DNA of 64,000 nucleotides. It comes from a virus. Lineage: Duplodnaviria > Caudoviricetes. Every line of letters starts with the position of its first letter. Positions within the stretch are counted from its first letter, which is position 1. Both the position numbers and the translations under genes were made by a program. The DNA lies in the IMG/VR virus record IMGVR_UViG_3300050500_000423, positions 1-64,000 of that record; one strand, written 5' to 3'. This document shows positions 6,194-51,379 of the stretch, piece by piece. The notes under the pieces are model-generated. The model was not told where the DNA came from and made no database searches. It saw only the letters and a program-made list of their open reading frames with translations.

Positions 6194-6213
6194 CTCATGC
6201 TCCTCATCGCCGT

Positions 6214-6234
6214 ACTGGATACGCCAACTATACA
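6214..6234 (-). promoter_or_regulatory. Repeated promoter motif, copy 2
   Basis: TGTATAGTTGGCGTATCCAGT, identical to copy 1; heads the 6193->3564 operon. Confidence 0.7.
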
Positions 6235-6267
6235 CGGGCGGCTCCGCGGAGTCGAGTACGGGGTAGC

Positions 6268-6706: not shown

Positions 6707-6748
6707 TAGCAACCCGCTCCCCCGCCGTGTATAGTTCGCGTATCCAGT
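6707..6748 (+). promoter_or_regulatory. Repeated promoter motif, copy 3 (TAGCAA-N17-TATAGT + TCGCGTATCCAGT)
   Basis: 17-bp spacing; 6728-6770 nearly identical to 30708-30750; RBS GGAGG then ATG 6776. Confidence 0.72.
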
Positions 6749-6775
6749 ACGGCGAACGACTTGACGGAGGAAGCG

Positions 6776-30689: not shown

Positions 30690-30728
30690 CAACCCACCGC
30701 ACCGTCCTGTATAGTTCGCGTATCCAGT
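30687..30728 (+). promoter_or_regulatory. Repeated promoter motif, copy 4
   Basis: TAGCAA-N17-TATAGT TCGCGTATCCAGT; near-identical to copy 3. Confidence 0.72.
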
Positions 30729-30758
30729 ACGGCGAACGACTCGACGGAGGCACACGAG

Positions 30759-35366: not shown

Positions 35367-35569
35367 TGGAGCGGAAGGGCTTCACCTGCGACGGCGGCTG
35401 CGGCGCGACGCTCGTCATCGCACCGCACGAGTCGCTCGCGACGTTCGGCTGGTGGACGACGTACACGGGCGATGGTTCCCCGACGGTCCATGCCTGCTCG
35501 TTCGACTGCCTTCTCTCGGTCCTTCATCGCCGCGCCGAGCGTGTCCTCCCCGAAGGAACCAAGCCATGA
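35366..35569 (+). CDS. small zinc-binding hypothetical protein
   Basis: CDGGC...HACSFDC. Confidence 0.5.
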   Translation: MERKGFTCDGGCGATLVIAPHESLATFGWWTTYTGDGSPTVHACSFDCLLSVLHRRAERVLPEGTKP

Positions 35570-35583
35570 CCAACGAGCGCATC

Positions 35584-35965
35584 GACGGTCTACGTGTTCC
35601 GAAGTTCGCGGTTCGGCACGTTTCTGGTCGCGGCTCCGTGATTTCTCATGGAGGCTGCGTTCCGCACAGATTCGTCATCTTCACCGCGCGGACCCGTTAC
35701 AGGAGTAGGGCTATAGGGGATCGGGATTCGTGCCTCGGTGAACGGGCTTCCCGTTTCGGAGTCCCGTCCAAAAAGTGGTTCCCGAGAGGCGGTTTCTCCA
35801 GGCGCTCTCGGAGAATCGTTTTCGGGCGACCTTCCCGATCACCGATCCCCTATAGCCCTACTCCTGTAACGGGTCCGCGCGGTGAAGATGACGAATCCAC
35901 GCGAATCGCGGCCTCGATGAGAAATCATCTGGCCGCAGGCGATTTCGTGCGGATTCCGCAACTAG
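35584..35965. repeat. Long-hairpin non-coding element, copy A
   Basis: Perfect 56-bp inverted repeat 35669-35724/35842-35897; outer arms TGATTTCTCAT/ATGAGAAATCA; homologous to 47788-48169. Confidence 0.88.
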
Positions 35966-35981
35966 AGGAGGTAGAAGCACG

Positions 35982-36329
35982 ATGAGACGACTACTACTCG
36001 CGGTGCTGCTACTCGTAGCCGTGATGGCGCCGAACGCTGTTCACGCGGAGGAGTTCGATCCGTCAGCGGAGTGCGAAGCGGGTCACCACGTCCACGGGTT
36101 CTGCGGCGGCGACGGTGATGACGGGCAGGAGGACGTGATCGAAGCCGTCCGGCGCTGCCTCGAGGACGGGTCGTGTGGGCAGCCACTCGACCCGAATGCC
36201 CCGCGACTCCCGATCGGCTACGCCGACGACGGCAGCCCGATCTATCCGCCCGCTCCCGACACGGCCGAACCGGACGCTCCGCCGCGTTCGTCCGGGCCGG
36301 CTGGTCCGACACCGAGGTTCACGGGCTGA
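35982..36329 (+). CDS. secreted hypothetical protein
   Basis: RBS GAGGAGG; signal peptide MRRLLLAVLLLVAVMAPNAVHA. Confidence 0.6.
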   Translation: MRRLLLAVLLLVAVMAPNAVHAEEFDPSAECEAGHHVHGFCGGDGDDGQEDVIEAVRRCLEDGSCGQPLDPNAPRLPIGYADDGSPIYPPAPDTAEPDAPPRSSGPAGPTPRFTG

Positions 36330-36934
36330 TGGACGAGTCGAGGTCCGGCATGTATCTCGGTGCGGTCGTCGTCAGCCGCGAGGATCAGCAACGCGGCCAA
36401 GTCGTCTACTGGAAGGGGTACGGCAACCGGGCCGTGCGTATCTTCGCGGACGACGAGTACAGCGTGAAGCTCGGCCCGGGTACCTACCGTGCTGGCACCA
36501 ACGTCGGCGGGTGGGATCTCGTCCCATCGCCGGAGTGGACCGCTCAGGAGCGGGTGCAGTACGTCGCCTTGACGCATCCGGAGGGCGACACGGGGAACGA
36601 GAACGACGAACTCGGGTTCCATCTCGTCGCTGCCCTGTTCGACCCGCAGACCTACGAGGCCGTCCTCGGAGACGACGCCGCAGCGTGGCCCGTGTCCTAT
36701 CACGAGCTCGTCGCCCGAGTGGCTGAATGGATCGACGGTGAACTCGGTCCGGTACTCAGCCTCGCCCGGGAATGGGTGGCGTTGCTCCGGGAGACAGACG
36801 CCCTCCGCTCCGACGACACGACGCCAAGCGACGAGTACGCGGCACGCGCAGGCACCCTCGCCGTTCGCGAGCGCGCCTTGCGCTCCCGGTTCCTCGAGGC
36901 GTTCCCGGACACCGACACAGAGGAGGAACAGTGA
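36329..36934 (+). CDS. hypothetical protein
   Basis: TGATG overlap. Confidence 0.55.
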   Translation: MDESRSGMYLGAVVVSREDQQRGQVVYWKGYGNRAVRIFADDEYSVKLGPGTYRAGTNVGGWDLVPSPEWTAQERVQYVALTHPEGDTGNENDELGFHLVAALFDPQTYEAVLGDDAAAWPVSYHELVARVAEWIDGELGPVLSLAREWVALLRETDALRSDDTTPSDEYAARAGTLAVRERALRSRFLEAFPDTDTEEEQ

Positions 36935-37137
36935 GCGACGAGCGTTCGTACGATGCCGCGGACACCGTGCGAGCTATGACGGGAACGGACTGGACAACCG
37001 CGGCAATCGACGACGCCGCGCGTCGGTGTGGATGGCCGAAGGTATCCCCGCACCCGTTCTTGGTTGCCGAGCTACTCGATAGCGACGGAACCACGGAGGG
37101 CCGAGTCAACGCCCGTTCTGGTGGGGAGGAACAGTGA
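36931..37137 (+). CDS. hypothetical protein
   Basis: RBS GAGGAG. Confidence 0.48.
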   Translation: MSDERSYDAADTVRAMTGTDWTTAAIDDAARRCGWPKVSPHPFLVAELLDSDGTTEGRVNARSGGEEQ

Positions 37138-37343
37138 GCGACGAACCACGCTCAACTCGCGGTCGCCGTCGCGTGCGACGAGCTGAGGCACGCGAGGCCG
37201 CGTTGGAGGCTGAGGTTCAGGTACTCCGCGCCGCGCTGACGGAGATCGTCGCGTGGTGCGACGAGGGCGGAGAGCCGGTGTGTGCGTGGCCCGCCGAACG
37301 TGCTCGTGCCGCGCTTTCTGGTGGGGAACCCACCAATGGGTGA
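37134..37343 (+). CDS. hypothetical protein
   Basis: RBS GGAGG. Confidence 0.48.
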   Translation: MSDEPRSTRGRRRVRRAEAREAALEAEVQVLRAALTEIVAWCDEGGEPVCAWPAERARAALSGGEPTNG

Positions 37344-37617
37344 GCGACTCCGCACGCTGCTGTTCGAGCCTGGTCAGGGGTGGCTCCGATGGGGCTATGA
37401 CTCCCGGGACGACTACCGCTCCTACGACGAGCCGCCGGAGCGGTACCGGGTTGCTCCGCCGGCGCGTCGGCTCGCGCTGTACGTGACGGCGTGGCTTGTG
37501 GTGCCGTGGCTCATGGTCGTCGGCGTGCGGCCGGGACCGGGCGAGCGTCGCTATCGCTACTCGTGGGAGGAAGTTCGCCCGGAATGGCCGAGCTACTTGA
37601 AGGACGAGGACCGGTGA
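37336..37617 (+). CDS. hypothetical protein
   Basis: In-operon ORF. Confidence 0.48.
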   Translation: MGERLRTLLFEPGQGWLRWGYDSRDDYRSYDEPPERYRVAPPARRLALYVTAWLVVPWLMVVGVRPGPGERRYRYSWEEVRPEWPSYLKDEDR

Positions 37618-38375
37618 CCCTCGTTCCTGCGGTCACCGAGAACCAGCCGAAGCCCGCGCTCGTCGCTGCGGGTGTCGTCTCGATGCTCACTCGGTCGTCG
37701 GCGTGTCCTTCGGAGTTGATCGGGGGACGACTCATCCTCCACGCGGGGGAGGCGGAGCCGGTCCTGACGGACTTGCGCGTATGGCTGCCTCTCGACCGCG
37801 CTCGGCGTGCCGTCGAGCCGTGCGCCCGATGCGGGCACGGCGACGGCTCGCATGTGTGCCACTTCAACTCGACACGCTGCGTCGTCTGTGGGTGCAACGG
37901 CTACGAGCTGCCGCCGCTTCCCCGTGGTGCGGTGGTGGCGTCCTGCGTCGTGAGCGAGTGTCTGCCGATCATCGACGCGACCGCGTGGAGTGAAGGCGAA
38001 GGCGACGTGCTCGGTGGTGGCGTTCACTGGCCGCCCGACCGCCGCTCGGTGTGCTCGACCGGCGCGCTGCGTGACCTGCACAACCCGTGGGTGATCGCGG
38101 TCGGAGGCGGGCGCGAGAAGGTCGAGTACCACGAGGGCGCGTTCGGGGACTTCTCGCCTGGGAACTTCGCCTGGATTCTGTCGAGCGTGGAGCCGACGTC
38201 TCGTCGATGCCCCCACTGCTGGGGCGAGGGGTTCGTGATCGACCCGCTCTCGACGATCAGCGAGCCGTCGCAGGTGGGGTGCCCGACCTGTCACACGCGG
38301 AAGTCGTGCCCGCCCGTGCCGATGCGGGGCCACTCCGGTCTCTGGTATCCGAAGTGGGAGGACGACCGTGCCTGA
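37614..38375 (+). CDS. ASCH-like domain protein with two zinc-finger insertions
   Basis: LILHAG, LPRGAVVA, AFGDFSPGNFAWIL, PVPMRGHSGLW; N-terminal QPW/ETRSW signature degenerate. Confidence 0.58.
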   Translation: MTLVPAVTENQPKPALVAAGVVSMLTRSSACPSELIGGRLILHAGEAEPVLTDLRVWLPLDRARRAVEPCARCGHGDGSHVCHFNSTRCVVCGCNGYELPPLPRGAVVASCVVSECLPIIDATAWSEGEGDVLGGGVHWPPDRRSVCSTGALRDLHNPWVIAVGGGREKVEYHEGAFGDFSPGNFAWILSSVEPTSRRCPHCWGEGFVIDPLSTISEPSQVGCPTCHTRKSCPPVPMRGHSGLWYPKWEDDRA

Positions 38376-38577
38376 GCCCCCCGACCGCCAGGAATGGGAG
38401 TACCGCGCCGTCTATGCGGACGGAGTGCCTGCCGCCATCATCCAGTGCAGCACCAATCGCAAGTACGTCGAGAACCACATGGCTCGGCTGGTCGGAACCA
38501 CGATGGCGGCGGAGCACGGCCCGTTGCGAATGCAGCGTCGCATCATCCCTCAGTGGGAGAACGTTCCTGATGCCTGA
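38368..38577 (+). CDS. hypothetical protein
   Basis: In-operon ORF. Confidence 0.48.
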   Translation: MPEPPDRQEWEYRAVYADGVPAAIIQCSTNRKYVENHMARLVGTTMAAEHGPLRMQRRIIPQWENVPDA

Positions 38578-39085
38578 GCACCCCGACAGAGAAGCCATCG
38601 CTGCGCGTGCAGAAGCCGCGACATCAGGGCCGTGGGTCGATGGCGAGATGCCCGACTGGGATTCGGAATCGGTGGTCAGCGCGACTGCTACGGAGCGTTG
38701 GACCGACACCGACGGTGCTGTGTACGAGACACCGTGCCAGATCCTCGATCCGCCGAACCCGGCTCCGTCACCGGCCGACCGTGAGTTCATTATGCACGCT
38801 CGCACCGACGTTCCCGCGCTGCTCGACGCGTTGGGAGCCGCGGAGGCCGAGAACGAGAGATTGCGGCGCGCGCTAGTCGATGCCCTTGACCCCGAGGAAG
38901 AGGTCACCAGCGAGGCGGCGCTTCGCCGAGAACGCGACGAGGCAGCGGAACTGCTACGCCAGAACGTCAAGTTGCTCCGTACGACGTACGCGTGCAAGAG
39001 CGACTTCGCGTATGAAGCGCAGATGGTCGTACTCGCAGACGAAGCCTTCCTCGCGGCTCTGACCCCGACGGGAGACGAGTCGTGA
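38570..39085 (+). CDS. Ead/Ea22-like phage protein
   Basis: AEAATSGPW...ADREFIMHARTDVPALLDAL...ENERLR. Confidence 0.6.
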   Translation: MPEHPDREAIAARAEAATSGPWVDGEMPDWDSESVVSATATERWTDTDGAVYETPCQILDPPNPAPSPADREFIMHARTDVPALLDALGAAEAENERLRRALVDALDPEEEVTSEAALRRERDEAAELLRQNVKLLRTTYACKSDFAYEAQMVVLADEAFLAALTPTGDES

Positions 39086-39128
39086 TCTGGTATCCCACCG
39101 AGAAGGACTGGACGCCAGAGGACGCGGC

Positions 39129-39905
39129 GTGAAGGCGTCTGAGGTCATCGACGTGCTCTGCGGGCACTGGCCGGCGGGAGAGTCGCTCTGTATCCCGGAG
39201 GCGCCGCAGGACGTGATGCGGATGGGTCGGAAGATCGACCTCCTCGTCTGCTCGTTCTGGCGGTCGCGCGGGTACGCCCTCGACGCCGTCGAGGTGAAGG
39301 TCTCGCACTCCGACTGGATGCGCGAGGTCAACAACCCGGAGAAGGCGGACTTCTGGTACGAGCACTCCGACCGCTTCTGGGTCGCGGTGCCGTCCGAACT
39401 CACGGCCCGGGTGCGGGATACCCTTCCGCCGACGTGGGGGCTGCTCGGGATCTCGGGCGGTCGCGCGTCGGAAGTCGTGAAGGCACCGAAGCACGACCGG
39501 ACGCCGCTCACGTGGGGGACAACGCTCGGGATCATCCGCGCGTCGTCCGGCGCCGGGGCGAACGCGGTACAGCGCGCCTACGAGCGGGGTCGGCAGGAAG
39601 GGCACCGGTCGGCGGAGGCGAGCGCGCGAGGATCGACGCAGTACGAGGCGCTCCGCAGTCGCGTCGAGAGCTTCGAGAAGGCGTCGGGTCTCGACCTCGC
39701 GAACTGGCGGGCGGACTTCCGCGGCCAGGACCCCGAGCAACTCGGGGACGCCGTGAAGCGGCTCCTCGAGGTTGAGCACGAAGTCGAGCGTGCGGAGCGC
39801 CGGCTTCGGGATATCACGGACTCGCTCGCTGCCGCGCATCGACGCGCCGCGGCGCTACTCGCAATCCGAGAGGGGGAGAAGGATGCCGGGCGCACCGAGG
39901 GGTGA
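39129..39905 (+). CDS. MmcB-like PD-(D/E)xK nuclease
   Basis: RKIDLL...AVEVKVSHSDW..E...PEKA...DRFWVAVP. Confidence 0.6.
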   Translation: MKASEVIDVLCGHWPAGESLCIPEAPQDVMRMGRKIDLLVCSFWRSRGYALDAVEVKVSHSDWMREVNNPEKADFWYEHSDRFWVAVPSELTARVRDTLPPTWGLLGISGGRASEVVKAPKHDRTPLTWGTTLGIIRASSGAGANAVQRAYERGRQEGHRSAEASARGSTQYEALRSRVESFEKASGLDLANWRADFRGQDPEQLGDAVKRLLEVEHEVERAERRLRDITDSLAAAHRRAAALLAIREGEKDAGRTEG

Positions 39906-40215
39906 GCGATGCCGGGTGTTCCGTTGCGGGACGCCGGCGACGCTCGATGTTCTGTTCCCCGGCGGCGATGTCGCCCCGCAGTGGTGGTCGCCGCTTGAAG
40001 AGGACGATGTGGTCGGGCATCGGACGCGTGTCTGCGCCGCGCACGGGGCGGAACTCGGGTCCGTGTCGATCGCGTTCGTTGAGCTCGATGTCGAGAAGTG
40101 CGCGGGCTGGCAACTCGTCGTCGAGTTCGTGAAGGACCCAGAGAAGTCGAACCCGATCGTGCTGTACCCGCCTGGGACGCGCGACCTAGTCGAAGGAGAG
40201 GAACACGGTGGGTAA
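39883..40215 (+). CDS. hypothetical protein
   Basis: RBS then ATG; C...C...C..H. Confidence 0.48.
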   Translation: MPGAPRGERCRVFRCGTPATLDVLFPGGDVAPQWWSPLEEDDVVGHRTRVCAAHGAELGSVSIAFVELDVEKCAGWQLVVEFVKDPEKSNPIVLYPPGTRDLVEGEEHGG

Positions 40216-40630
40216 CTGGCGGACGGTCCATATCGCGGGGCACTGCAATGCCGACGAGGCCGAGGTACTCCGCGAGTACGTCAACGACCTGCAACAGTGG
40301 GGTCCGTTGCACAACGGCGGTATCTGCGGGCTGCATGAGTGGCCGGCCGAGGTGATCGACGTGACCGGGAACCTCGGGGAACGTGGCTACTCCGTCGAGG
40401 ATGTCGCGGCGACGCTCCGGAAGCTCATCGAGATCGCTCCGTCGCTTCGGGTGCGGATCGACTGCGGCGCCGATGACGAGTCCCTCGACTGCGTCGCGAC
40501 GATCGTCACGGACGAGGACGGCACGGTCGGGGTGCTCCCGCCCGCGGTCGAGACGCTCCCGGCTATCAGCGAGGGGCACATGGCGGCCGGGTTCTTCGAC
40601 CAGCTCGCGAACCCGAGGTACCGTCGATGA
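40208..40630 (+). CDS. hypothetical protein
   Basis: In-operon ORF. Confidence 0.58.
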   Translation: MGNWRTVHIAGHCNADEAEVLREYVNDLQQWGPLHNGGICGLHEWPAEVIDVTGNLGERGYSVEDVAATLRKLIEIAPSLRVRIDCGADDESLDCVATIVTDEDGTVGVLPPAVETLPAISEGHMAAGFFDQLANPRYRR

Positions 40631-40959
40631 CGGCGGCGTGGTCGGCGGCCGCCGATGAACTCCTCGAGGTGTTCGTCGGCGCGACGGAGGATCTCCCCGA
40701 CGACGCCGAGACGGGCATCGTCGCGATCCTGAACCATCCCGACGTGATCCTCGCGGCGCTCGGCGTCGATCGGCTGCTCCTTGAGCTGCGGGACCTCGTC
40801 TACGACGTGTCGAGCGAGGTGCCCGTCGTCGCGCGCGTGAACTCGATCGGGTGGACCCGTCGGCTGACGGCCGCGCTCGGGGTCCTTCGTGAGCTCGGCT
40901 ACGAGGACGACTCGCACCCGTACCGACCGATCGACGATCCCCGTCCTTTCGTCCGATGA
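40627..40959 (+). CDS. hypothetical protein
   Basis: ATGA overlap. Confidence 0.52.
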   Translation: MTAAWSAAADELLEVFVGATEDLPDDAETGIVAILNHPDVILAALGVDRLLLELRDLVYDVSSEVPVVARVNSIGWTRRLTAALGVLRELGYEDDSHPYRPIDDPRPFVR

Positions 40960-41270
40960 GTTACGCCCGGTTCGCTCGGGACTCGTCGGTGTACGTGTTC
41001 CTGAACACGGAGGGCCGGCTTGAGTGCTGCGGCTGCAACCTCCGATCCGATGACGAGGTCAAGGCGCGCGGCCATGCGACGCTTCGTCGGACCACGGTTG
41101 AGATGGTCGAGCATCTCGACGCGCACCGCGCCGCGGGCCAGAAGGTCCCGAAGCGGACGTACGCCGCCCTCCGTGCCGACGCGGAGGAGAACGACCAGTG
41201 GATACGCGACTACGACGAGCGCGCCGGAGGTCTCCGCGCGGAGACTCCGGTGGAGTCGGGCGACGGGTAG
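40956..41270 (+). CDS. hypothetical phage protein
   Basis: MSYARFARDSSVYVF...LECCGC...HLDAHRAAG. Confidence 0.6.
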   Translation: MSYARFARDSSVYVFLNTEGRLECCGCNLRSDDEVKARGHATLRRTTVEMVEHLDAHRAAGQKVPKRTYAALRADAEENDQWIRDYDERAGGLRAETPVESGDG

Positions 41271-41369
41271 GGTCTCGTCTACCGGTCCTCCCCGGGTACA
41301 TCGAGGACGCCTGTTCTTCTCCCGGTTGTCGGGTGAGGGACAGGCGTTTCTCGTTGGCGGGGAGGGGGT

Positions 41370-41657
41370 CTATGCGAGGGCTTCCTCGACGTGGTCGCGG
41401 ACCGCGGCGGCGACGCTCTCGGGGGTGGCGTGTCCGTCGGAGAAGTCGCGGGTGCCGACGCGTTGGACTCGGTAGGTGTTGTCTGCGGGGTCGACCGTCG
41501 CGAGGATGACGACCTCGCGACGGTCCTCGGTGGCGGCTTCGACGCGGATCACTCCGACGGTTTCGTCGGAGCGGACGTGGAGTTCCCAGACGTTCGGGAG
41601 GTCCTCGACTTGGTCGAAGGTCTCTGCTGCGACTTCTCGGATCGTGTGCTCACCCAT
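41370..41657 (-). CDS. hypothetical protein behind promoter copy 5
   Basis: Same TGGAGGGCGAGATG translation start context as the DUF3560 gene. Confidence 0.58.
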   Translation of the reverse strand: MGEHTIREVAAETFDQVEDLPNVWELHVRSDETVGVIRVEAATEDRREVVILATVDPADNTYRVQRVGTRDFSDGHATPESVAAAVRDHVEEALA

Positions 41658-41683
41658 CTCGCCCTCCATCACTCACCCGCCGC

Positions 41684-41704
41684 ACTGGATACGCCAACTA
41701 TACA
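41684..41704 (-). promoter_or_regulatory. Repeated promoter motif, copy 5
   Basis: TGTATAGTTGGCGTATCCAGT, identical to copies 1 and 2. Confidence 0.7.
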
Positions 41705-41773
41705 CCCGATGGTGGCGGGGGGTAGACCCCGCGGCGTACTCTCCCAGGTACTCGATCGAGAGGACCCCTGCCG

Positions 41774-42496
41774 ATGCCCCGCCCTGCTGCTCCCCCCAGA
41801 ACCGGCCCCCGTGCCCTCACCGACGAACGCCGCAAACTTCTCCTCGACAGCCTCGCCGCAGGCGACAGCATCAAAGCAGCAGCCGAAACCGCCCACCTCG
41901 GAGAACGCACCGTCCAGCGATACCTCACCCGAGGCGACACCGCACAAGCCACCCTCGACACCCACATCGACAACCTCACCGACACCCGACGAACCATCCT
42001 CGACCGATGGGACGACACCCGACGCGACCGCTACTACGAACACCACATCCCCCCCACCGAACGCGCGTATTGGCGTTTGTGGCGTGATGCCACTCGGGCG
42101 CGGGCGCGAGCGGAGACGCTTGCTCTGGCTCGTATTCGGGCGGCGGGTGCGGGTGGGGGCGTGTCGTGGAAAGAGGTCCTGAATCCCAAGACGGGGGAGA
42201 AGGTCCGGTTGGAGCAGTCGATCGACCCGGATTGGCGGGCGGAGGCGTGGTTCTTGCAGCACGGGCATGCTCGGGAGCGGTGGTATCGCCGGCCGACGGC
42301 GGTGGAGCTCACGGGGGCGGATGGCGGTCCGATCGCGTTGGCGGGGGTGGATGAGGCGCGGGATCGGGCGGCGGTTGCGCTGTCGAAGTTCGAGCAGCGT
42401 CGGAATCAGGCGTTGGAGGCGGAGCGGCAGGCTGCGGCGGAAGCGGACAGCGCGGGCGACGCTCTCCGGACGGGTTCCGATCCCGGAGGGGTCTAA
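41774..42496 (+). CDS. Terminase small subunit-like HTH protein
   Basis: N-terminal HTH (LLDSLAAGDSIKAAAETAHLGERTVQRYL), DWRAEAWFL, VELTGADGGPI; strong strand-composition switch mid-gene. Confidence 0.62.
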   Translation: MPRPAAPPRTGPRALTDERRKLLLDSLAAGDSIKAAAETAHLGERTVQRYLTRGDTAQATLDTHIDNLTDTRRTILDRWDDTRRDRYYEHHIPPTERAYWRLWRDATRARARAETLALARIRAAGAGGGVSWKEVLNPKTGEKVRLEQSIDPDWRAEAWFLQHGHARERWYRRPTAVELTGADGGPIALAGVDEARDRAAVALSKFEQRRNQALEAERQAAAEADSAGDALRTGSDPGGV

Positions 42497-42924
42497 CCCG
42501 GAGGCTTCATGGGGAATCCGGCCGAACTTCCTCGGAGGCCGTGGATTCCTCGCCGGGCGAGCGCGTGTCGCGGGTCTCTGCCGTGAGCGGCGCACGGGTG
42601 AGGCGGCAGTAGGCGTGTAGGGGAGCGTCACCGGACTGGCGGGCGGGGGAACTCGCCGGGGGAGCTGTCGTCTGGAATCGTCTCGTGGAATCCGAGTTTC
42701 TGGGAGCCGCTCCGGAAAACGGGTTTCGCGGAACGGGTTTCGCGGAGGGCACCCTGCGTCCCTACTGCTAGCTCACGTCACTGGAGGCTTCATGCGGAAT
42801 CTGGAGTTTCGGTCGCCCCGCCGCGAAATTTCGCGGTGGGAGGGCGAAACCGCGTGAGATGGCGTGATGGTCAAGCGTCGATGTCCTCGACGGGGTTAGA
42901 CCCCGCGGTCTAGGGTTAGACCCC
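42488..42924. repeat. Repeat-rich non-coding region after terS
   Basis: Direct repeats GGAGGCTTCATG.GGAATC.GG (42499, 42783); tandem AACGGGTTTCGCGGA; GGGTTAGACCCC x2 with an inverted copy at 42488. Confidence 0.65.
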
Positions 42925-42940
42925 GATCGAGGAGGTTGCT

Positions 42941-44098
42941 GTGGGTCCGGAGAAGGTCACGGATCGGTTGCTCGTCTGGGGTGCCGATCAGATGGAGTCG
43001 GGGACGCTCGAGCAGGCGGCGCGCGCGTCGCGGCTCCCATTCGTCGCCGGTCACGTTGCGTTGATGCCCGACGCGCACGTCGGGAAGGGAGCGACGGTCG
43101 GGTCGGTGCTCCCGACTGTCGGCGCGGTGATCCCCGCGGCGGTCGGCGTCGACATCGGCTGCGGGATGGTCGCGGTCGAGATGTCCGCGACGGCGTCGCA
43201 ACTCCCGGACGACCTCGGCGCGGTCCTCCAGGCGATCGAGGCGGTCGTCCCCGCAGGTGTCGGCCGCGGTCACGACCATGTCGGGTCCACAGCCCGAGCT
43301 TGGCTTGCTGGCCGGCCGAACACGTTGACGGCACGGCAGGAAGCGACGGCGCTCGCACAGTTCGGGACTCTCGGTTCCGGGAACCACTTCCTCGAGGTCT
43401 GCCTCGATGAACGCGACCGAGTCTGGCTGGTTCTCCACTCGGGGTCGCGAGGGATCGGGAACCAACTCGCGTCGGCGCATATCGAACGGGCACAGAAGCT
43501 CGCCTCCCGCTGGTTCCTTGACCTCGAGGACCCGGACCTCGCGTACCTTCCGGAAGGCACTCCCGAGTTCGACGCGTACATCGAGGCGATGCTCTGGTCG
43601 CAGGACTACGCGTACGCGAACCGGCAGTACATGGCGACGGAGGCGATCCGGGTCCTCGCGGCCGTGATGCCCTTCCAAGTGATCCGCTCCGTGAACTGCC
43701 ATCACAACTTCACGCAGCGGGAGCATCATCACCACCGCGATATCTGGGTCACGCGGAAGGGCGCGATCCGGGCACGGACCGGCGACGAAGGCGTCATCCC
43801 CGGGTCGATGGGGACGAGCTCGTACATCGTGCGAGGTCTCGGAAGCTCAGCGTCGTTCTGTTCCTGCTCGCACGGCGCAGGCCGGCGGATGTCCCGCGGT
43901 GTCGCCCGACGGACGTTCACCGCGGACGACCTCGCGGACCGGATGGGCGACCGGGTGTGGAACGCCAACCAGGCGGAGCGACTCATCGACGAGATCCCCG
44001 ACTCGTACAAGGACATCGACGCGGTCATGGCCGCTCAAGCGGACCTCGTCACGATCGAGCACACCTTGCGCCAGGTCCTGAACTACAAGGGCGCCTGA
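42941..44098 (+). CDS. rtcB: RNA ligase RtcB
   Basis: MPDAHVGKG, VGVDIGCG, LGSGNHF, LHSGSRG, HHN, RKGA, PGSMG, SHGAGR, DEIPDSYK. Confidence 0.96.
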   Translation: MGPEKVTDRLLVWGADQMESGTLEQAARASRLPFVAGHVALMPDAHVGKGATVGSVLPTVGAVIPAAVGVDIGCGMVAVEMSATASQLPDDLGAVLQAIEAVVPAGVGRGHDHVGSTARAWLAGRPNTLTARQEATALAQFGTLGSGNHFLEVCLDERDRVWLVLHSGSRGIGNQLASAHIERAQKLASRWFLDLEDPDLAYLPEGTPEFDAYIEAMLWSQDYAYANRQYMATEAIRVLAAVMPFQVIRSVNCHHNFTQREHHHHRDIWVTRKGAIRARTGDEGVIPGSMGTSSYIVRGLGSSASFCSCSHGAGRRMSRGVARRTFTADDLADRMGDRVWNANQAERLIDEIPDSYKDIDAVMAAQADLVTIEHTLRQVLNYKGA

Positions 44099-44100
44099 TC

Positions 44101-44520
44101 GTGGCTGGCGCTCTTCTCTGGACGTACAGCTACGGGTGGCTGTCCGTCACGGCGTGTGACACAGTCGAGACCGCGATCGAGGAAGCCGAGCGCGGGTCAG
44201 ACGCCGGCGAGCATGCCGTGTACGCGATCGAGGAAGAGACCCCCGACGGGAACCACCTCATCAACGAGGAACATCCCGCGTGGGTCGCGTACCAGGCCGC
44301 GGAGCGGGAACGGCAACGAGCGGAGACGGAACGAATCGCGGCGCACCTTGCCCGTCAGGTCGGCAGCGTCGAAGTCAGCGCACCGACCGGCGTCGGCGCT
44401 ACACCCGCGTTGGAGTGGGTGAGTGTCGCTGCTCCGACATCGCAGGCCGACCTCGACGATGCGGTCGCGGTCTGGACCGAACGCGTCGGCGCTGACCGAG
44501 TCCGGGTCGTACCGACGTGA
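44101..44520 (+). CDS. hypothetical protein
   Basis: In-operon ORF. Confidence 0.55.
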   Translation: MAGALLWTYSYGWLSVTACDTVETAIEEAERGSDAGEHAVYAIEEETPDGNHLINEEHPAWVAYQAAERERQRAETERIAAHLARQVGSVEVSAPTGVGATPALEWVSVAAPTSQADLDDAVAVWTERVGADRVRVVPT

Positions 44521-44569
44521 CCTGCCTCACCGAACCGTCGCTACTGCCCGAACCCCGATCGGAGACCGA

Positions 44570-44701
44570 ATGAGCACGGACCAGGAACGCCGGGACTACT
44601 TCTCGGCCCGACAGTTAGCTCTCCGGAACGGCAGCCCGAAGGGGAAGGCGGGTCGTCGTCGTCGACTGCGTCGGAAGCAGGAGACATGGAAGCGGAAGTA
44701 G
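44570..44701 (+). CDS. small basic protein
   Basis: MSTDQERRDYFSARQLALRNGSPKGKAGRRRRLRRKQETWKRK. Confidence 0.38.
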   Translation: MSTDQERRDYFSARQLALRNGSPKGKAGRRRRLRRKQETWKRK

Positions 44702-44997
44702 CTCGGCTGCTGATCAACGAACACGACCGTGCCGTCGACCACGGCATACCCCCGGGGGTAGCGGCGACGCGTGTCGTCGCGGAAGTCCGTCGGATCGCGG
44801 AGGGACCGCCGTCCGAACGGGTCGAGGCGTTCGCGGTCGCGTACGCCTGCTGGCGGCAGAGGATCGACCCTGCCGACTTGCCTCTCCCGGACTCGCATCT
44901 GCTGGCTGGCGTGTACCGAGCGGCGCTCGAGAACGGCCGTGACCTCGCCGCGTATGTCCTTCCGGTACTCGGTGAGCAGGGACCCGAGCGGGCGTGA
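44686..44997 (+). CDS. hypothetical protein
   Basis: RBS AGGAG. Confidence 0.52.
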   Translation: MEAEVARLLINEHDRAVDHGIPPGVAATRVVAEVRRIAEGPPSERVEAFAVAYACWRQRIDPADLPLPDSHLLAGVYRAALENGRDLAAYVLPVLGEQGPERA

Positions 44998-45281
44998 CGA
45001 CCGCGGACCGGCAGATGGTGCCGTTGCCACGCGCGCTGGTCGCCCGGTGGGACGAAGCACGGGGGACGCTGTCGCGTCCGGCGTTCCTCGAGGCACTGTT
45101 GGACGAGTACGACGGGAAACCCCCCGGCCCCGAGCGCGCCGCGCCGGCCGCGCCGGCGCGGGAGCCGGTACGGCAGGGTGGGGTCCGTCCGGGGTCCTGT
45201 CCGCATCCATCGTCTCGTCGGATCGGCGCGGGGTGTGGGATGTGCGGAGACACGACGGCGCACTCGAGCCGGCGGGGCTGA
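44994..45281 (+). CDS. Possible ribbon-helix-helix protein
   Basis: MVPLPRALVARWDEARGTLSRPAFLEALL; C-terminal C..H...CGMC. Confidence 0.42.
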   Translation: MTTADRQMVPLPRALVARWDEARGTLSRPAFLEALLDEYDGKPPGPERAAPAAPAREPVRQGGVRPGSCPHPSSRRIGAGCGMCGDTTAHSSRRG

Positions 45282-45303
45282 ACCGGAGAAGGGGGAGGGA
45301 CTG

Positions 45304-45939
45304 ATGGCGAAGCGACGGAGCCGTCGAGCACGACCGGCGGGGGGATCAGGTCTGGGTCTCCCGGTCGACTACGCGGGGTTACCGGCGATCGACCCGACCG
45401 CGAACGTCACCGCGCAACTCGACGCCGCCGTCGCTCGACTCGATGATCTCCGCGAAGCGTCCGAGCAACGCACGGCCGAGCTCGTCGCAGCGCATACCGA
45501 GATGGACCGCCAGACCGCTCGGCACATCATGGAGACCGCCGAGCTACGCGCCCGGTACGAGGAGATGCTCCGCACCGCGGAGCGAGACCGTATCGACGCG
45601 ATCCGCGCCCTGGACGTGAGCAACGTCGAGCGGGCGCAGGCGGTCTCGCAGGAGCAGGCGGCGACGCTCGCGACGCAGGTCGCGACGTCGGCGGAGGCGC
45701 TCCGTGCTCAGGTCGAAGCGACCAGGGTGCAGACAGCGATCGCGCTTGACGCGGCGTTGCAGCCGATCAAGTTCGATGTCTCGGACTTGCGTCGGGTGCA
45801 GTACGAGCAGCAGGGGCAACGCGCGGCCGTGACGGAGACGAAGTCGAACACGGCGTCACTCTGGGCGGTCCTGATCGGTGCTGGCGGGTTCCTGATCGGT
45901 CTCAGTGGCTTGGTGCTGGCTTTCACGAGAGGAGGGTGA
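45304..45939 (+). CDS. Coiled-coil protein with C-terminal TM helix
   Basis: IDPTANV...helical region...LWAVLIGAGGFLIGLSGLVLAF. Confidence 0.6.
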   Translation: MAKRRSRRARPAGGSGLGLPVDYAGLPAIDPTANVTAQLDAAVARLDDLREASEQRTAELVAAHTEMDRQTARHIMETAELRARYEEMLRTAERDRIDAIRALDVSNVERAQAVSQEQAATLATQVATSAEALRAQVEATRVQTAIALDAALQPIKFDVSDLRRVQYEQQGQRAAVTETKSNTASLWAVLIGAGGFLIGLSGLVLAFTRGG

Positions 45940-45940
45940 G

Positions 45941-46177
45941 GTGGGGACCGGCCGCTACGTCACCGCGGGAGGCGACGACCTCGAGATCGGAACCCGGTAC
46001 GCGGCACGGTTCGATGACTGCTGCGTCGGCGGGTCCTTCACCGCGACACTGACCGAGGTCCTCACGATCGTCGACGGCGACGACCTGGCGTATCCGGTCA
46101 CGCTCGTGTTCGACAATAGCGTCCGGCTGGACGAATGGAACGGCGTCCGGTTCGTACCGGCGCCCGAGGGAGGCTGA
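45941..46177 (+). CDS. hypothetical protein
   Basis: RBS GGAGG. Confidence 0.48.
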   Translation: MGTGRYVTAGGDDLEIGTRYAARFDDCCVGGSFTATLTEVLTIVDGDDLAYPVTLVFDNSVRLDEWNGVRFVPAPEGG

Positions 46178-46181
46178 TCGT

Positions 46182-46934
46182 ATGTTCGACCGGGTAGGCG
46201 ACGAGAAGGTCGTCACGAGACGGGTGCATCGCTGGTGGGGCGGCCGCCGTTGGAAGTGGGAGCTCTGGCGGACGGTCGAGGTCGACACCCGAGGGGGCGT
46301 CCTCACGACGACGGTCGCGAGCACGACAGTCCTCGTCGCGTCGGGGTGGGCGAGGACGAACGACCAGGCCGCAGCGCGCGGTCGAGAGGCGCTCGCGATC
46401 ACCGTCCCGATGCTCCGACCCGCGCCGACCGAGATCCCCGTCGAGGCACTCAACTTCCACGACGGGGAGACGGAGGCGCTCGTACGGCAGGCGATTGAGG
46501 CGTTCCGCCTCACCCGTGAGTACGTCGAGCCGAAGGTGCGGCTCTCGGCGGTCGAGGGCTGGTCGTGGTTCGACGCCGTCGTCGCGCTCCGCCGGTACCT
46601 CTTCGACCGCGGCTACGTCGACGACCTGTCGGAGGTGTGGGCCCCGACGAACGAGGACGCGGCTCCCGACCCAAGCGAGGTCGTCGACGCCATCATCGTG
46701 GAGGACGACACCGAGTACCTCCGCCTCCTCGAGGAGCGGGTGAACCGGACCGTCGAGCGCATCGAACGCGAGCAGGAACGCATCCAGACGATGGACGACT
46801 TCGAGCCGGCCGGCCGCTGGCAGTTCCGGCGCCGCTGGTGGCTCGACGGCATCCGCACGGCGCGCGCCGTCGAGGAAGTCAAGCTCGAGTCGATCCTGCA
46901 CTACCTCGTCTGCGCGCAGTGCGGGAACCGATGA
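46182..46934 (+). CDS. hypothetical protein
   Basis: RBS GGAGG; long ORF with normal codon style. Confidence 0.58.
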   Translation: MFDRVGDEKVVTRRVHRWWGGRRWKWELWRTVEVDTRGGVLTTTVASTTVLVASGWARTNDQAAARGREALAITVPMLRPAPTEIPVEALNFHDGETEALVRQAIEAFRLTREYVEPKVRLSAVEGWSWFDAVVALRRYLFDRGYVDDLSEVWAPTNEDAAPDPSEVVDAIIVEDDTEYLRLLEERVNRTVERIEREQERIQTMDDFEPAGRWQFRRRWWLDGIRTARAVEEVKLESILHYLVCAQCGNR

Positions 46935-47173
46935 TCGGGACGTGCTCAGGCTGCCAGTTCGCCCTCGCGACCGTCGGCGGGTTGGAGTGCCGTCGGTACC
47001 CGCCGACGGTCGAGGATGTCGCCGGCGACCTCGTCGTCGCTGGCTTCCGGTACGTCCGCCCGGAGGACTGGTGCGGCGAGTACCAGCGGAGTGACCGGCA
47101 GTCCTCGTGCGCGCACTCGGGCAAGGTGCGCCGCGCCGACGGCATCTGCTCTCTCTGCGGGACCCGGCCGTGA
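46931..47173 (+). CDS. Cys-rich hypothetical protein
   Basis: CSGC...CRRYPP...DWCGEY. Confidence 0.55.
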   Translation: MIGTCSGCQFALATVGGLECRRYPPTVEDVAGDLVVAGFRYVRPEDWCGEYQRSDRQSSCAHSGKVRRADGICSLCGTRP

Positions 47174-47412
47174 GCAACCTCGAGCGTCCCTGCCCGGTGG
47201 GGTTCCTGACGCACGAGGAGTTGTCCGCGATCGAGGTCACAGCCGACCTCGTTGCCCTGCTCGATGACATCGTCGGTGACGGCGCGACGGCACAGCAGGA
47301 CCGAGCGGAACTCGTCGCGCTCGTCCACAGCATCCAGTACCGGATCATGGGGCAGGCGGCGGCGCGCGCGTACCCCGACCGGTTCCGGCTTCTCGGGGAG
47401 ACCATCGAATGA
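47170..47412 (+). CDS. hypothetical phage protein
   Basis: ELVALVHSIQYRIMGQAAARAYPDRFRL. Confidence 0.55.
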   Translation: MSNLERPCPVGFLTHEELSAIEVTADLVALLDDIVGDGATAQQDRAELVALVHSIQYRIMGQAAARAYPDRFRLLGETIE

Positions 47413-47774
47413 ACCACGGCGACGAGGTCTACGTCACGGTCCGAGGTCAGTCCGTCGCCGCTGTCGTACGCGGGCGGGGAACGCTCGGTGCCGTGTACGT
47501 CGAACTCGTCCAGCCGTTCTACGACCCGGAGGTGTCCCCCGATCCCGTGCGGTTCCTCTACCGGGACCCGTCCGAAGTCGCAGTACGGGTCGAGGACGCC
47601 CCGAATCTCTCCGCACCGCACGACTTCCATCGTCGGGGCTGGCGATGGTGGCTCTGCCGGCACTGCTACGCGCCGAGGGCGCTGCATCCCCGGCAGCGGT
47701 ATGTACGGTCGCGTCCGGTCGATGACAACCTCGTCTTGAGCCGTCGAGCACCGCACTTCCGGGAGGGCTGGTGA
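47409..47774 (+). CDS. hypothetical protein with zinc-binding C-terminus
   Basis: H.F...CRHCYAP...HP. Confidence 0.52.
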   Translation: MNHGDEVYVTVRGQSVAAVVRGRGTLGAVYVELVQPFYDPEVSPDPVRFLYRDPSEVAVRVEDAPNLSAPHDFHRRGWRWWLCRHCYAPRALHPRQRYVRSRPVDDNLVLSRRAPHFREGW

Positions 47775-47787
47775 CGCAGGACGCCGA

Positions 47788-48169
47788 GACGGTCTACGTG
47801 TTCCGAAGTTCGCGGTTCGGCGCGTTTCTGGTCGTCGCCTCGTGATTTCCGTGCGGCTGCGCGATTCGCGTGGTTCTGTCATCTTCGCCGCGCGACCCCG
47901 TTACAGGAGTAGGGCTGTAGGGTGCCGCGTTTCGTGCTTCGGTGAACGGACCTCTTCGTTCGGGGCACTGCTCGAAAAGTGGTTTCCGAGGGGACTCTTT
48001 CCGGGCTGCTCTCGGAGAATCGTTTTCGGGCGACGCTCCCGATCGCGGGTCCCCTACATCCCTACTCCCATAAGGAGGTCGCGGACCGAAGATGACGAAT
48101 CTGTGCGAATCGGGGCCGCGATGAGAAATCACGGGGCGACCCCCGAGTTCATGCAGATTCGTCATCTAG
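47788..48169. repeat. Long-hairpin non-coding element, copy B
   Basis: First 34 nt identical to copy A; same arm and core words; imperfect inverted arms. Confidence 0.85.
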
Positions 48170-48187
48170 CTCTGGGAGGATGCGCGC

Positions 48188-48430
48188 ATGGCCGTTCCTG
48201 CGACTGAAACGAAGCCGGCGCTCCCGACGACGGCCGACGGCGACCACGACCGGTTCTCGCACTACGCCCCGAAGGCCGACGTCGCTCGGGCGTACGCGAT
48301 GGGTGAGCCGATCACGGCGCTGTGCGGGAAGCGGTGGGTTCCGTCTCGCGATCCGGAGCGTTACCCGATCTGCCCGGACTGTGTTCGTATCAAGGCGTCC
48401 CTCGACGCCGGAGGAGAAGAGACCCCGTGA
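48188..48430 (+). CDS. DUF3039 domain protein
   Basis: GDHDRFSHY...GEPITALCGKRWVPSRDPERYPICPDC. Confidence 0.85.
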   Translation: MAVPATETKPALPTTADGDHDRFSHYAPKADVARAYAMGEPITALCGKRWVPSRDPERYPICPDCVRIKASLDAGGEETP

Positions 48431-49653: not shown

Positions 49654-49910
49654 CCGAGCGACTCCTCGCCCTGCCCCCGGTCGAGAAGGTCGTCCGGTCG
49701 AAGTGCCGAGACCTCGTACCCCTCGCTCCGGGTCGCTGCGCTCGTTGCGGCGCAGCGACGGTCCCCGAGGTACACGGGCTGCTCTCGCTTCTCCGCCACG
49801 GCGGCTATGGGGCCGACCGGGAGACGACCTACGCCGTCTGCTCGTCCCTGACATGCCGGTACACGCGACGCGTCGAGGTCATCGAACGCAGCCCGAGGCG
49901 GCGATCGTGA
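49650..49910 (+). CDS. zinc-ribbon hypothetical protein
   Basis: CARC...CSSLTC. Confidence 0.5.
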   Translation: MTERLLALPPVEKVVRSKCRDLVPLAPGRCARCGAATVPEVHGLLSLLRHGGYGADRETTYAVCSSLTCRYTRRVEVIERSPRRRS

Positions 49911-51379
49911 CCGACTTCCGAGACGCAGACCTCGACACGCTCCGGGAACTCATCGACCAGACAGAGGACCCCGAGGAACTCGAGGCACTTGCTATCGCGC
50001 TCGGGTCCGAGTACCCATGGGAGCCGCAACCGCATCAGCTTCCCCCGCCGGGGGAACCACCGTGGACGTGGTGCTTCCAGGGCGGCCGAGGGACCGGCAA
50101 GACCGACACGGGGGCGCACTACACGGACGAGCACATGAGCGGCCCGCCGTGCGACCATCGCTGGCCGGGAGGGCACAAGGGGCTCCTAATCGGCCCGACC
50201 CACGCTGACGTCGTCGCCTCGACCATCCGAGGGGTCTCCGGGCTGATCGCGCACAACCCGGGTGTCCGACAGGTCGGCCGGAAGGACGGCACGTTCGCGA
50301 TCTGGCCGAACGGAGCGGAGGCGGTCTGCCTCGGGATGCACACCGAGCAGGACGCTGAACGTCTCCGGGCACAGGCGGCGAACACGTGCTTCTGGTGGAT
50401 CGACGAGGCAGCGATCGGCCGGCACCTCTCGACCGCTGTCGACAACCTCCGGTTCGGCGCTCGAGGTGTTCTCGGGGGACGGCAGCCGCACGGCATCGCG
50501 ACAACGACCCCGAAGGCGACGCCCGCCTACAAGTCGTTCCTCCGAATGCCCGGCGTCGCGGTGACGTACGCGTCGAGCTACCAGAACCGGTACCTCACGG
50601 CGGAGCACCGCGAGTTGATCGCGCACTACGAAGGGACACGACTCGGCCGGCAGGAAATCTACGGCGAGCTCGTCGATGACTACGAGGGGGCGCTCTTCGA
50701 TCGGCAGACCCTCGCGGAGGACCGCATCACGGACCCGGCGATTCTCGCCCTCGACGCGGACGGGCAACTCTCCGCGCTCGGCTGTTCCCGCACGTTCACG
50801 GGGATCGACCCATCGACGTGGATTCCGGAGATAGGCGCACCCCCCGCGGACGACGAGTACGAAGGCGGCGCCGGGATCGAGACCGGCATCGTCACTATCG
50901 GGATCGACCGACGGTGGCCGCCGCACATCTACGTGACCGAGGACCGCTCCGGTCGTGTCGCCGCGATCGAGTGGGCACGCCGCGCTGTCGCGCAGCACTA
51001 CCTCTGGCACTCAACGATCGTCCCGGAAACGAACGCAGGGGGCGACCTCGTCCTCGCGACCATCGCGTTGACGGACGCGACCGTGCCGATCTACCGAGAG
51101 TTCGACCCCGAGACAAACAAGCTGTCGAAGAAACCGGGAGTCCGCGCACGGATCGGGAAGCGCGCCCGGGCGGAACCCGTCGGTGCCCTGTCCGACCAAC
51201 ATCGGTTGCACATGGTCGGAGAGTTCCCCGCGTTGGAGTCGACGCTCTGCGGATGGGACCCGACGGAGAACTGGTCCCCGGACCGTCTTGACGCGTTCGT
51301 CTGGGCGGTACACGGCGCGCGGCCGTGGCGGAAGCGCACCACCGCGGGTGTCGGAGGTCGTGGCTCCACCCGACGGTGA
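49907..51379 (+). CDS. terL: Terminase large subunit
   Basis: QGGRGTGKT (Walker A), WWIDEA (Walker B), TTTP, TGIDP...GIETGIV, ETNAGG, SPDRLDAFVWA. Confidence 0.9.
   Translation: MTDFRDADLDTLRELIDQTEDPEELEALAIALGSEYPWEPQPHQLPPPGEPPWTWCFQGGRGTGKTDTGAHYTDEHMSGPPCDHRWPGGHKGLLIGPTHADVVASTIRGVSGLIAHNPGVRQVGRKDGTFAIWPNGAEAVCLGMHTEQDAERLRAQAANTCFWWIDEAAIGRHLSTAVDNLRFGARGVLGGRQPHGIATTTPKATPAYKSFLRMPGVAVTYASSYQNRYLTAEHRELIAHYEGTRLGRQEIYGELVDDYEGALFDRQTLAEDRITDPAILALDADGQLSALGCSRTFTGIDPSTWIPEIGAPPADDEYEGGAGIETGIVTIGIDRRWPPHIYVTEDRSGRVAAIEWARRAVAQHYLWHSTIVPETNAGGDLVLATIALTDATVPIYREFDPETNKLSKKPGVRARIGKRARAEPVGALSDQHRLHMVGEFPALESTLCGWDPTENWSPDRLDAFVWAVHGARPWRKRTTAGVGGRGSTRR

Follow-up and report, generated by a model that had tools for sequence, protein, structure and literature searches.

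A non-coding long-hairpin element present in two copies between the genes of a phage genome

Among the closest described systems are the RNase III sites (R0.3, R0.5, R1 and others) which separate cistrons in the early and late mRNAs of phages T7 and T3. The T7 sites are single hairpins of ~50-60 nt which occur about ten times per genome and are cleaved at an internal loop. The nutL/nutR sites of phage lambda and the putL/putR sites of HK022 measure 30-70 nt, lie directly downstream of promoters and are read as RNA. Their hairpin is invariant because one factor reads it. Longer units are found in the ERIC/IRU and Correia (CREE) families, which are known to influence the stability of mRNAs and their cleavage by RNases. 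Members of these families measure 100-170 bp, end in terminal inverted repeats flanked by target duplications and reach tens to hundreds of copies in cellular genomes. Integron attC sites span 57-141 nt, contain defined R and L boxes and extrahelical bases and need the integron integrase. Finally, the mycobacteriophage elements MPME1 and MPME2 are reportedly ~440 bp long and ~79% identical to each other; they are said to be bounded by terminal inverted repeats of 11 bp, to contain a small ORF that is conserved and not to form long hairpins.

Here we describe a 382-nt element which occurs as two copies, A and B, in a phage genome. The window, that is, the whole stretch of 64 kb that was analyzed, is the first part of an 87,621-bp IMG/VR virus record. 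The genome has a GC content of 68.5% and carries nearly all of its genes on the + strand. A 127-bp terminal repeat is present at 1-127 and 87495-87621. A length of 127 is a common maximum assembler k-mer, and the repeat may reflect a circular assembly instead of physical terminal repeats, in which case coordinate 1 is arbitrary.

Judged from its proteins, the virus is probably a tailed phage of actinobacteria. The large terminase subunit TerL showed a best identity of at most 39% in the phage collection searched, and the weaker matches came mostly from Gordonia, Microbacterium and Arthrobacter phages. The nearest prophage-like genome matches of TerL were found in Streptomyces and Actinotalea (37% identity), and its closest relatives overall share 59-68% identity (P0002-P0010). 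A DpdA-like protein is 41-56% identical to its counterparts in Arthrobacter, Rhodococcus and Mycobacterium phages. The phage also encodes a DUF3039 protein, DnaB-like and UvrD-like helicases and the RNA ligase RtcB, whose gene is separated by 5 kb from copy B and by 7 kb from copy A. Most proteins neighboring the elements have no assigned family. One neighbor, the ATPase gene upstream of A (33585-35366), encodes a HerA/FtsK-like protein with winged-helix domains toward its C-terminal end. This ATPase has more than 3,000 homologues of ~45-50% identity, several of them on contigs of 83-89 kb, and its family appears to be widespread in uncultivated phages. The whole 87.6-kb genome gave no RVT_1 (PF00078) match at E<=1. 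Neither a Y1 transposase (PF01797), a tyrosine integrase (PF00589) nor a serine resolvase (PF00239) is encoded in the phage genome, and the same holds for RNase III and TROVE (Ro60/Rsr) proteins. ARAGORN detected no tRNA-like gene in the window.

The two copies, and the parts of copy B, are located as follows.

35584-35965, + strand: element copy A, whole
47788-48169, + strand: element copy B, whole, with leader hairpin, long stem with branched tip, and tail
47788-47833, + strand: P1, leader hairpin of B with the core CCGAA-GTTCGCGG-TTCGG
47834-47934, + strand: left arm of the long stem of B, pairing with 48040-48140
47944-47961, + strand: P3, small tip hairpin of B, GAACGGA-CCTC-TTCGTTC
47974-48027, + strand: P4, tip hairpin of B (GAAAAGTGGTTTCCGAG...CTCTCGGAGAATCGTTTTC)
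48040-48140, + strand: right arm of the long stem of B
48141-48169, + strand: tail of B, in which the arm word is directly repeated for the third time (CAGATTCGTCATC) ahead of the terminal CTAG

A and B align over 382 nt with 94 substitutions and no gap (77% identity). No further copy exists in the 87.6-kb genome, and both have the same orientation. The first 34 nt had been reported as identical in a sequence-only reading of this DNA, and 47788-47821 of B indeed equals 35584-35617 of A at 34 of 34 positions. All four words quoted there as shared occur in both copies. Further identical blocks comprise a 26-mer in the tip and stretches of 20, 14 and 13 nt, while the remainder is ~75% identical. 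The GC content of the element, 59-61%, is lower than that of the genome. Copy B starts 14 nt past the upstream stop codon (47772-47774) and ends 5 nt before the ribosome-binding site GGGAGG (48174-48179) of the DUF3039 gene (ATG 48188). Copy A starts 15 nt past the stop codon (35567-35569) of a 67-aa gene and ends immediately before GAGGAGG, which is followed by ATG 35982. Both copies are oriented like their flanking genes and exactly fill two intergenic gaps. The genes around A are unrelated to those around B, and the idea that the flanking genes are paralogues was rejected on this ground.

The copies share a common anatomy consisting of the 5' hairpin P1, a stem of ~135 bp, a tip of ~117 nt formed by P3 and the longer, bulged P4, and a tail ending in CTAG. 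The P1 region is the best-conserved block of the element. Of the 62 columns that precede the long stem, 61 are kept, and the P1 helices show zero variation between A and B. As a repeat family this block was detected with 92% identity over 62 nt. The core hairpin P3 pairs in both copies, as had been stated before. Its form in A is AACGGG-CTT-CCCGTT, and the copies differ by one wobble change and one compensatory change, from G-C in A to A-U in B. The base of P4 is conserved on both strands and its distal part is variable. P4 takes in most of the common 26-mer (48009-48034) and lies outside the main palindrome; all five of its one-sided changes yield G.U on the + strand. The right arm of B contains the tandem word GATTCGCACAGATTCG on the - strand (48096-48111), and in the consensus fold the tail of B pairs weakly with the downstream ribosome-binding region. 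In copy A, 35669-35724 and 35842-35897 form an inverted repeat of 56 bp without a mismatch, which looks like the result of recent arm homogenization at the DNA level.

The element is non-coding. One frame is open across both hairpins (35566-35985, 139 codons; 47776-48207, 143 codons) and is a possible trap for gene callers. The 94 differences are distributed over the three codon positions as 32:25:37, and the amino acid identity between A and B amounts to 57-59% in all six frames. The conserved 5' part of the open frame has no start codon in B. When the translated open frame served as the query of a full HMMER search, none of 1.84 billion representative proteins was hit. An ORF on the - strand of B is missing from A, and no ORF is conserved between the copies. 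With no codon-position signal, no start in B and no homologues, the protein-coding reading was rejected. The leader had also been read as a 24-codon frame of B (47771-47845). This frame is present; its GTG overlaps the upstream stop codon (GTGA) and GGGAGGG is found 4 nt before it. In A the matching frame is the frame of the upstream gene continued past its TGA and, in agreement with the same reading, it has no start with a ribosome-binding sequence before it. Since A lacks such a start and three of the four codon differences are non-synonymous, a leader peptide was rejected.

The RNA fold of B has an energy of -213.5 kcal/mol (z = -8.6) and that of A -260 kcal/mol (z = -13). In a GC-corrected 400-nt sliding fold of the genome A and B were the top two outliers. 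In order to obtain a random reference for B, the same 94 substitutions were placed randomly in A. This gave -162.8 +/- 8.1 compared with -206.1 for B (z -5.3), and 0 of 150 randomized sequences reached the energy of B. There are 121 pairs common to A and B, and 11 pairs were changed on both sides and are still paired. These double-changed pairs fell to 0-1 when the partners were slid by 1-3 columns; the shuffle controls are, however, biased, as there are two sequences and the structure was derived from the same two. Coming from only two sequences, the 11 double changes are a count and not a statistical test of covariation. Together, the energy, the 11 compensatory pairs and the absence of indels alongside 94 substitutions support the earlier proposal of selection on structure, in that selection or another force keeps the hairpin. 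The same reading had named pairing disrupted as often as at random as the mark of a decaying duplicate. For the whole fold the disruption stays below this level, whereas in strict register the survival of pairs is barely above random (116 of the 150 pairs of A survive in B, compared with 110 +/- 3.6). B re-pairs partly in shifted registers. The 117-nt tip alone has no significant structure (z -1.4 to -2.0; substitution test p ~0.17). Fold and length of the element were kept through 23% divergence.

It had further been claimed that arm segments are swapped between the copies. GCACAG does occur in the left arm of A (including ACA 35666-35668) and its complement CTGTGC in the right arm of B (including TGT 48102-48104). 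Likewise, the left arm of B contains GCGTGG (GTG 47870-47872) and the right arm of A its complement CCACGC (CAC 35898-35900). A four-way alignment of the arms, in which the left arm and the reverse-complemented right arm of each copy were compared, revealed the swapped pattern at exactly three adjacent positions.

35666-35668 opposite 35898-35900, + strand: triple site of A, ACA opposite CAC, forming A.C/C.A/A.C
47870-47872 opposite 48102-48104, + strand: triple site of B, GTG opposite TGT, forming G.U/U.G/G.U

All other informative stem sites were changed in concert within one copy or are private to one arm. The opposite arm placement therefore stands, but its extent is just three adjacent transition positions and not segments. 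A single crossover between two parental hairpins just inside this site would, if it had made A and B reciprocal chimeras, also account for the flawless inner stem of A. This idea predicted that outer stems pair better between the copies. The prediction failed: leaving out the triple site, outer-stem pairing was 0.72 and 0.71 within the copies and 0.67 and 0.66 between them. With a swap of one 3-nt site and a failed crossover prediction, flipping or arm-to-arm conversion is not supported as the origin of the pattern. The triple site may be explained equally well by a short reciprocal patch exchange or by an exchange of wobble geometry, G.U to A.C, in three stacked pairs.

The earlier description as a family that was not recognized agrees with our searches, in which no Rfam match and no homologue in any collection reached were obtained. 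Rfam 15 (including 6S/Ms1, Y RNA, ribozymes, GOLLD/ROOL and HEARO) gave no match in the window at the gathering threshold, and at E<=10 just chance snoRNA-like hits far below threshold were seen. Blastn (E<=1) yielded no match to the element among 50,697 phage records, and the element was not found in 72,556 plasmids. An exact-word scan of IMG/VR with the 26-mer, two 17-mers and a leader 18-mer revealed no real relative; the 17-mer hits in two loci (L008 and L009) were rejected as unrelated AT-rich coding DNA. A nhmmer profile of A and B found no relative at ~330 loci near homologues of TerL or of the HerA-like ATPase. These loci were drawn from IMG/VR, metagenomes and GTDB genomes, and a scan for long inverted repeats in two of the runs likewise gave no relative. 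Blastn of 5 + 400 + 400 Actinomycetota genomes, a sampled set which may not include the host, gave no copy. Four short Actinomycetota hits were rejected, as they lie in or beside coding sequence and show no extension.

The single word match of note concerns the leader, of which a core of 21 nt is identical in one other IMG/VR phage (L348/L349), with no extension of the match.

L348, 13196-13340, - strand: leader-word match site
L349, 6247-6400, - strand: leader-word match site

In this phage the 21-nt word is followed by GAAGATGAC and lies inside a gene for a 235-aa replication-initiator-like protein. Iteron-like repeats, three copies of GGGGTTCTA(A/C) and two of GGTTTCCCGTC, adjoin it, and the site looks like an origin within an initiator gene. 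No homologue of the initiator-like protein was found in our phage. We regard the match as a lead that is possibly due to chance, the chance expectation for an 18-mer in the collection being ~1-3 by a rough estimate.

The word GATTC[CG] has a density of 0.79 per kb in the genome and is enriched in exactly three 500-nt stretches, which are A, B and a third stretch termed block C. Tandem GATTCS-N4-7-GATTCS words occur three times in 87.6 kb, namely at 35892 (A), 42674 (C) and 48096 (B). All three are on the - strand, and the two words of each tandem are spaced by about one helical turn. Block C is located beside the gene of the small terminase subunit TerS.

41774-42496: terS (phrog_4102)
42497-42940, + strand: block C, structured gap of 444 nt between terS and rtcB, z -3.2
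49703-51379: terL

Block C does not align to A or B. Its tandem is GATTCC-N7-GATTCC at 42674-42692 on the - strand. Block C also contains a direct repeat GGAGGCTTCATG(G/C)GGAATC spaced by 284 nt, a tandem ACGGGTTTCGCGGA and small palindromes of the GGGGTCTAACCC type at both ends, one of which contains the terS stop codon.

The distance between terS and terL is 7.2 kb here. In L090 (positions 1-900), the nearest relative reached (TerL 59.5% identical), both genes are adjacent with a gap of ~160 nt. Thus, C, rtcB and B lie within extra DNA. In the packaging module this extra DNA consists of C, rtcB, genes without known relatives, B and the DUF3039-VUT-DpdA genes (VUT is a VUT/YhhQ-like transporter). 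The terS-terL gap of L090 ends in a tandem GGGGTTACCCC word, and block C ends likewise. A, B and C are all found within or adjoining the accessory DNA which splits terS from terL. In the same region a different word, TCGCCG(C/T)ACTGGATACGCCAACTATACA, precedes terS immediately on its 5' side. This word of 28-31 nt has five occurrences in both orientations and looks like a candidate phage promoter or operator family.

2177-2207, 6207-6237, 6725-6755 (- strand), 30705-30735 (- strand) and 41678-41705: word TCGCCG(C/T)ACTGGATACGCCAACTATACA

A and B approximately frame the most G-skewed block of the genome. Within A, at 35,695, the cumulative GC skew passes through a local minimum, and it peaks globally at 48,338, shortly 3' of B. 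Across the 12.2-kb block between A and B (35966-47787) the + strand skew is ~+0.05 to +0.07 in 4-kb bins, compared with -0.02 to -0.05 in the adjacent DNA. The shift is present at all three codon positions, and at the third position the skew is 0.00 inside and -0.095 outside. With respect to GC skew inside versus flanks the A-B interval belongs to the top 1.3% of 12.2-kb intervals. The sharpest skew steps are at 36.9 and 46.3 kb, that is, 0.9 and 1.5 kb inside the A-B interval, and the coincidence of elements and skew is consequently approximate only.

Taken together, we describe a real, constrained and previously undescribed two-copy element. Our main reading, which we hold at a probability of roughly 35%, is that A and B are a strand-specific non-coding cis-acting RNA module at operon seams, in which a recognition hairpin is joined to a long stem for processing or insulation. 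RNA, not DNA, as the working form is what we infer, and each of the following steps is offered in the same spirit. A and B would be transcribed within rightward polycistronic mRNAs, at the seams between gene blocks. P1 would be the recognition module for one factor, either a protein of phage or host origin or the transcription complex. The imperfect stem of ~135 bp and its three-way tip would form a fold-constrained module separating the upstream from the downstream cistrons. Such a separation could proceed via double-strand-specific cleavage of the RNase III type, via pausing or termination, or via shielding of RNA ends. The stem would perhaps also cover the ribosome-binding site of the next gene transiently.

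This RNA module reading is based on the fact that the elements have the orientation of the flanking genes and are fitted from stop codon to ribosome-binding site between unrelated genes. It is further based on the kept fold, the lack of indels, the lower GC content, the non-coding nature and the modular conservation. P1 is conserved at 34 of 34 and the tip block at 26 of 26 positions and the stem is drifting, a pattern which resembles a recognition site joined to a structural part. RNA of the + strand is favored because the + fold is better than the - fold in both copies (-252.4 vs -240.1 for A, -206.1 vs -180.3 for B) and because the changes in P4 are all G.U on the + strand. Several observations weaken the RNA reading. 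One-sided changes in the long stem gave 22 G.U and 14 A.C, with no clear strand bias. Folds of the + and - strands as single-stranded DNA are equal (-101.8 and -96.9; z -6.65 and -6.68). The lone tip has no significant structure, and the triple site of A reads A.C/C.A/A.C on the + strand. A perfect 56-bp duplex would be unusual for a functional RNA, the genes downstream of A and B are unrelated, and the phage has no RNase III of its own. A separate reading, with an intrinsic terminator or a sigma-70 promoter in or beside the elements, was rejected: no such terminator was found, and a search for sigma-70-type promoters between 34.5 and 49.5 kb, from which phage or actinobacterial promoters may escape, was also negative.

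The best-surviving rival, unlikely in our judgment and yet a serious one, places the function at the DNA level. Here the long inverted repeat with its GATTCG-type arrays would be bound by one phage or host DNA-binding protein and could act in regulation, packaging, replication or partition, or else form a recombination joint. The seams of the accessory DNA would then be marked by A, C and B, and the arms would stay complementary through arm-to-arm correction by template switching or gene conversion. The confinement of the GATTC[CG] enrichment and of the - strand tandems to A, B and C speaks for such a site, as does the arm word repeated directly in the tail of B. The 56-bp perfect repeat of A and the concerted differences between the copies fit arm homogenization, and neither the G.U to A.C ratio nor the equal single-stranded DNA folds of both strands distinguish an RNA. 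The location of C and B within the terS-terL DNA that is extra relative to L090 and the skew of the A-B interval (top 1.3%, turns at 35,695 and 48,338) point the same way. However, the best skew steps lie 0.9 and 1.5 kb away from the elements, and the phage encodes no recombinase, integrase or transposase. With a spacer of 117 nt, duplex DNA is unlikely to extrude a cruciform. Binding of a duplex would also leave unexplained the nested tip hairpins with their compensatory and + strand wobble changes.

Less probable is a selfish palindromic DNA, MITE- or ERIC-like, which would have landed twice in harmless intergenic spots, where it is tolerated and co-transcribed. Its GC content below that of the genome, its palindromic build and its exact stop-to-ribosome-binding-site position, which leaves the genes undamaged between unrelated flanks in accessory regions, would suit a selfish unit. 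Terminal inverted repeats, however, are missing: the hairpin begins ~45 nt inside the left end and ends ~30 nt before the right end. The unit from GACGGTCTACG to CTAG has non-complementary ends, and the inverted repeat is internal. Target-site duplication is equally lacking (flanks of A ...GCGCATC|...|AGGAGG, of B ...GCCGA|...|CTCTGG), and the phage has no transposase. Searches of the phage, plasmid and IMG/VR collections, of the ~330 loci and of ~800 Actinomycetota genomes gave no further copy. A divergence of 23% with no indel and a kept fold indicates constraint.

We consider it improbable that the element is a single-strand DNA signal, in which the hairpin on a displaced or lagging + strand would act in replication priming or initiation like ssi/sso sites and single-strand promoters. 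A and B share one orientation and both fold strongly as single-stranded DNA. The cumulative skew turns inside A and shortly after B, and the 21-nt leader word lies beside iteron-like repeats in the initiator-like gene of the other phage. On the other hand, A lies at a skew minimum and B at the maximum, which is hard to square with one common function, and the - strand folds equally well as DNA. The 21-nt match, moreover, is within coding sequence and could be chance, and the phage has no initiator homologue. Just as improbable in our view is that A, B and C are folded joints of exchangeable accessory modules, that is, recombination or boundary substrates which move blocks between phages. This would cover the 12.2-kb G-skewed segment, with rtcB and genes lacking known relatives wedged into the terS-terL packaging module, and make the triple site a scar of patch exchange; no recombinase is encoded by the phage. 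Least probable of all is a functionless, decaying old duplicate: two copies without relatives, a lone tip without significant structure and the in-register survival barely above random would fit decay, but the folding energy of B lies 5.3 sd below the expectation from random decay, 11 pairs are compensatory, and 382 nt without an indel at 23% divergence include identical blocks of 34 and 26 bases amid 75% identity.

If the element is a functional RNA, it would be among the largest cis-acting hairpin modules described in phage operons, and its two-part logic of an invariant reader hairpin and a stem conserved only in its fold would be directly testable. Should it act as DNA, the element would link a palindromic protein-binding site with the seams at which accessory genes are inserted into a packaging module. 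These genes are the RNA ligase RtcB and a 7-deazaguanine salvage pair, and the element would then bear on the mosaic assembly of phages. At present the element is a single-genome family, and its worth hinges on relatives or transcript data.

Several known systems were rejected as a home for the element. A retron msr-msd does not apply, as there is no reverse transcriptase in the 87.6-kb genome, nor does a PATE derived from IS200/IS605, as there is no PF01797 Y1 (HUH) transposase. Although an rtcB gene is present, a Y RNA (YrlA) of the rsr-rtcB loci was rejected, given that there is no TROVE protein and no tRNA-like gene in the window. Integron attC sites resemble the element as imperfect palindromes at accessory seams, with a fold more conserved than the sequence and function on one strand. 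Assignment to attC was rejected on the 382-nt length and on the lack of a PF00589 or PF00239 match. MPME1 and MPME2 are ultra-small elements of actinobacteriophages with a similar size and a similar divergence between two forms. They were rejected because no ORF is conserved between A and B and because blastn gave no match at E<=1 in the 50,697 phage records, a GenBank-derived collection which we take to hold the MPME-bearing mycobacteriophages. The ERIC/IRU and Correia elements share with A and B the build of imperfect intergenic palindromes inside operons which are co-transcribed into long hairpins. Membership in the MITE, ERIC or Correia families was rejected on terminal repeats, target duplication and copy number, which is two in the phage.

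Likenesses are also found among phage RNA sites. Like lambda nutL/nutR and HK022 putL/putR, which lie in two rightward or leftward transcripts, the element occurs twice per phage genome and contains a short invariant hairpin. It differs by the giant stem that follows the conserved hairpin. The search for sigma-70-type promoters, which may miss phage or actinobacterial ones, gave none nearby, and among the neighboring proteins, most of them without a family, none was recognized as N- or Q-like. With the T7 and T3 RNase III hairpins the element shares the repeated intercistronic hairpins with internal loops in gene orientation, and also the drifting sequence and kept fold in a phage polycistronic RNA. 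Both A and B are intercistronic hairpins on the gene strand, as are the T7-type sites. In contrast to these, the element is about six times as long (382 nt) and combines a ~135-bp stem and a three-way tip with a separate invariant 5' hairpin, in two copies per genome.
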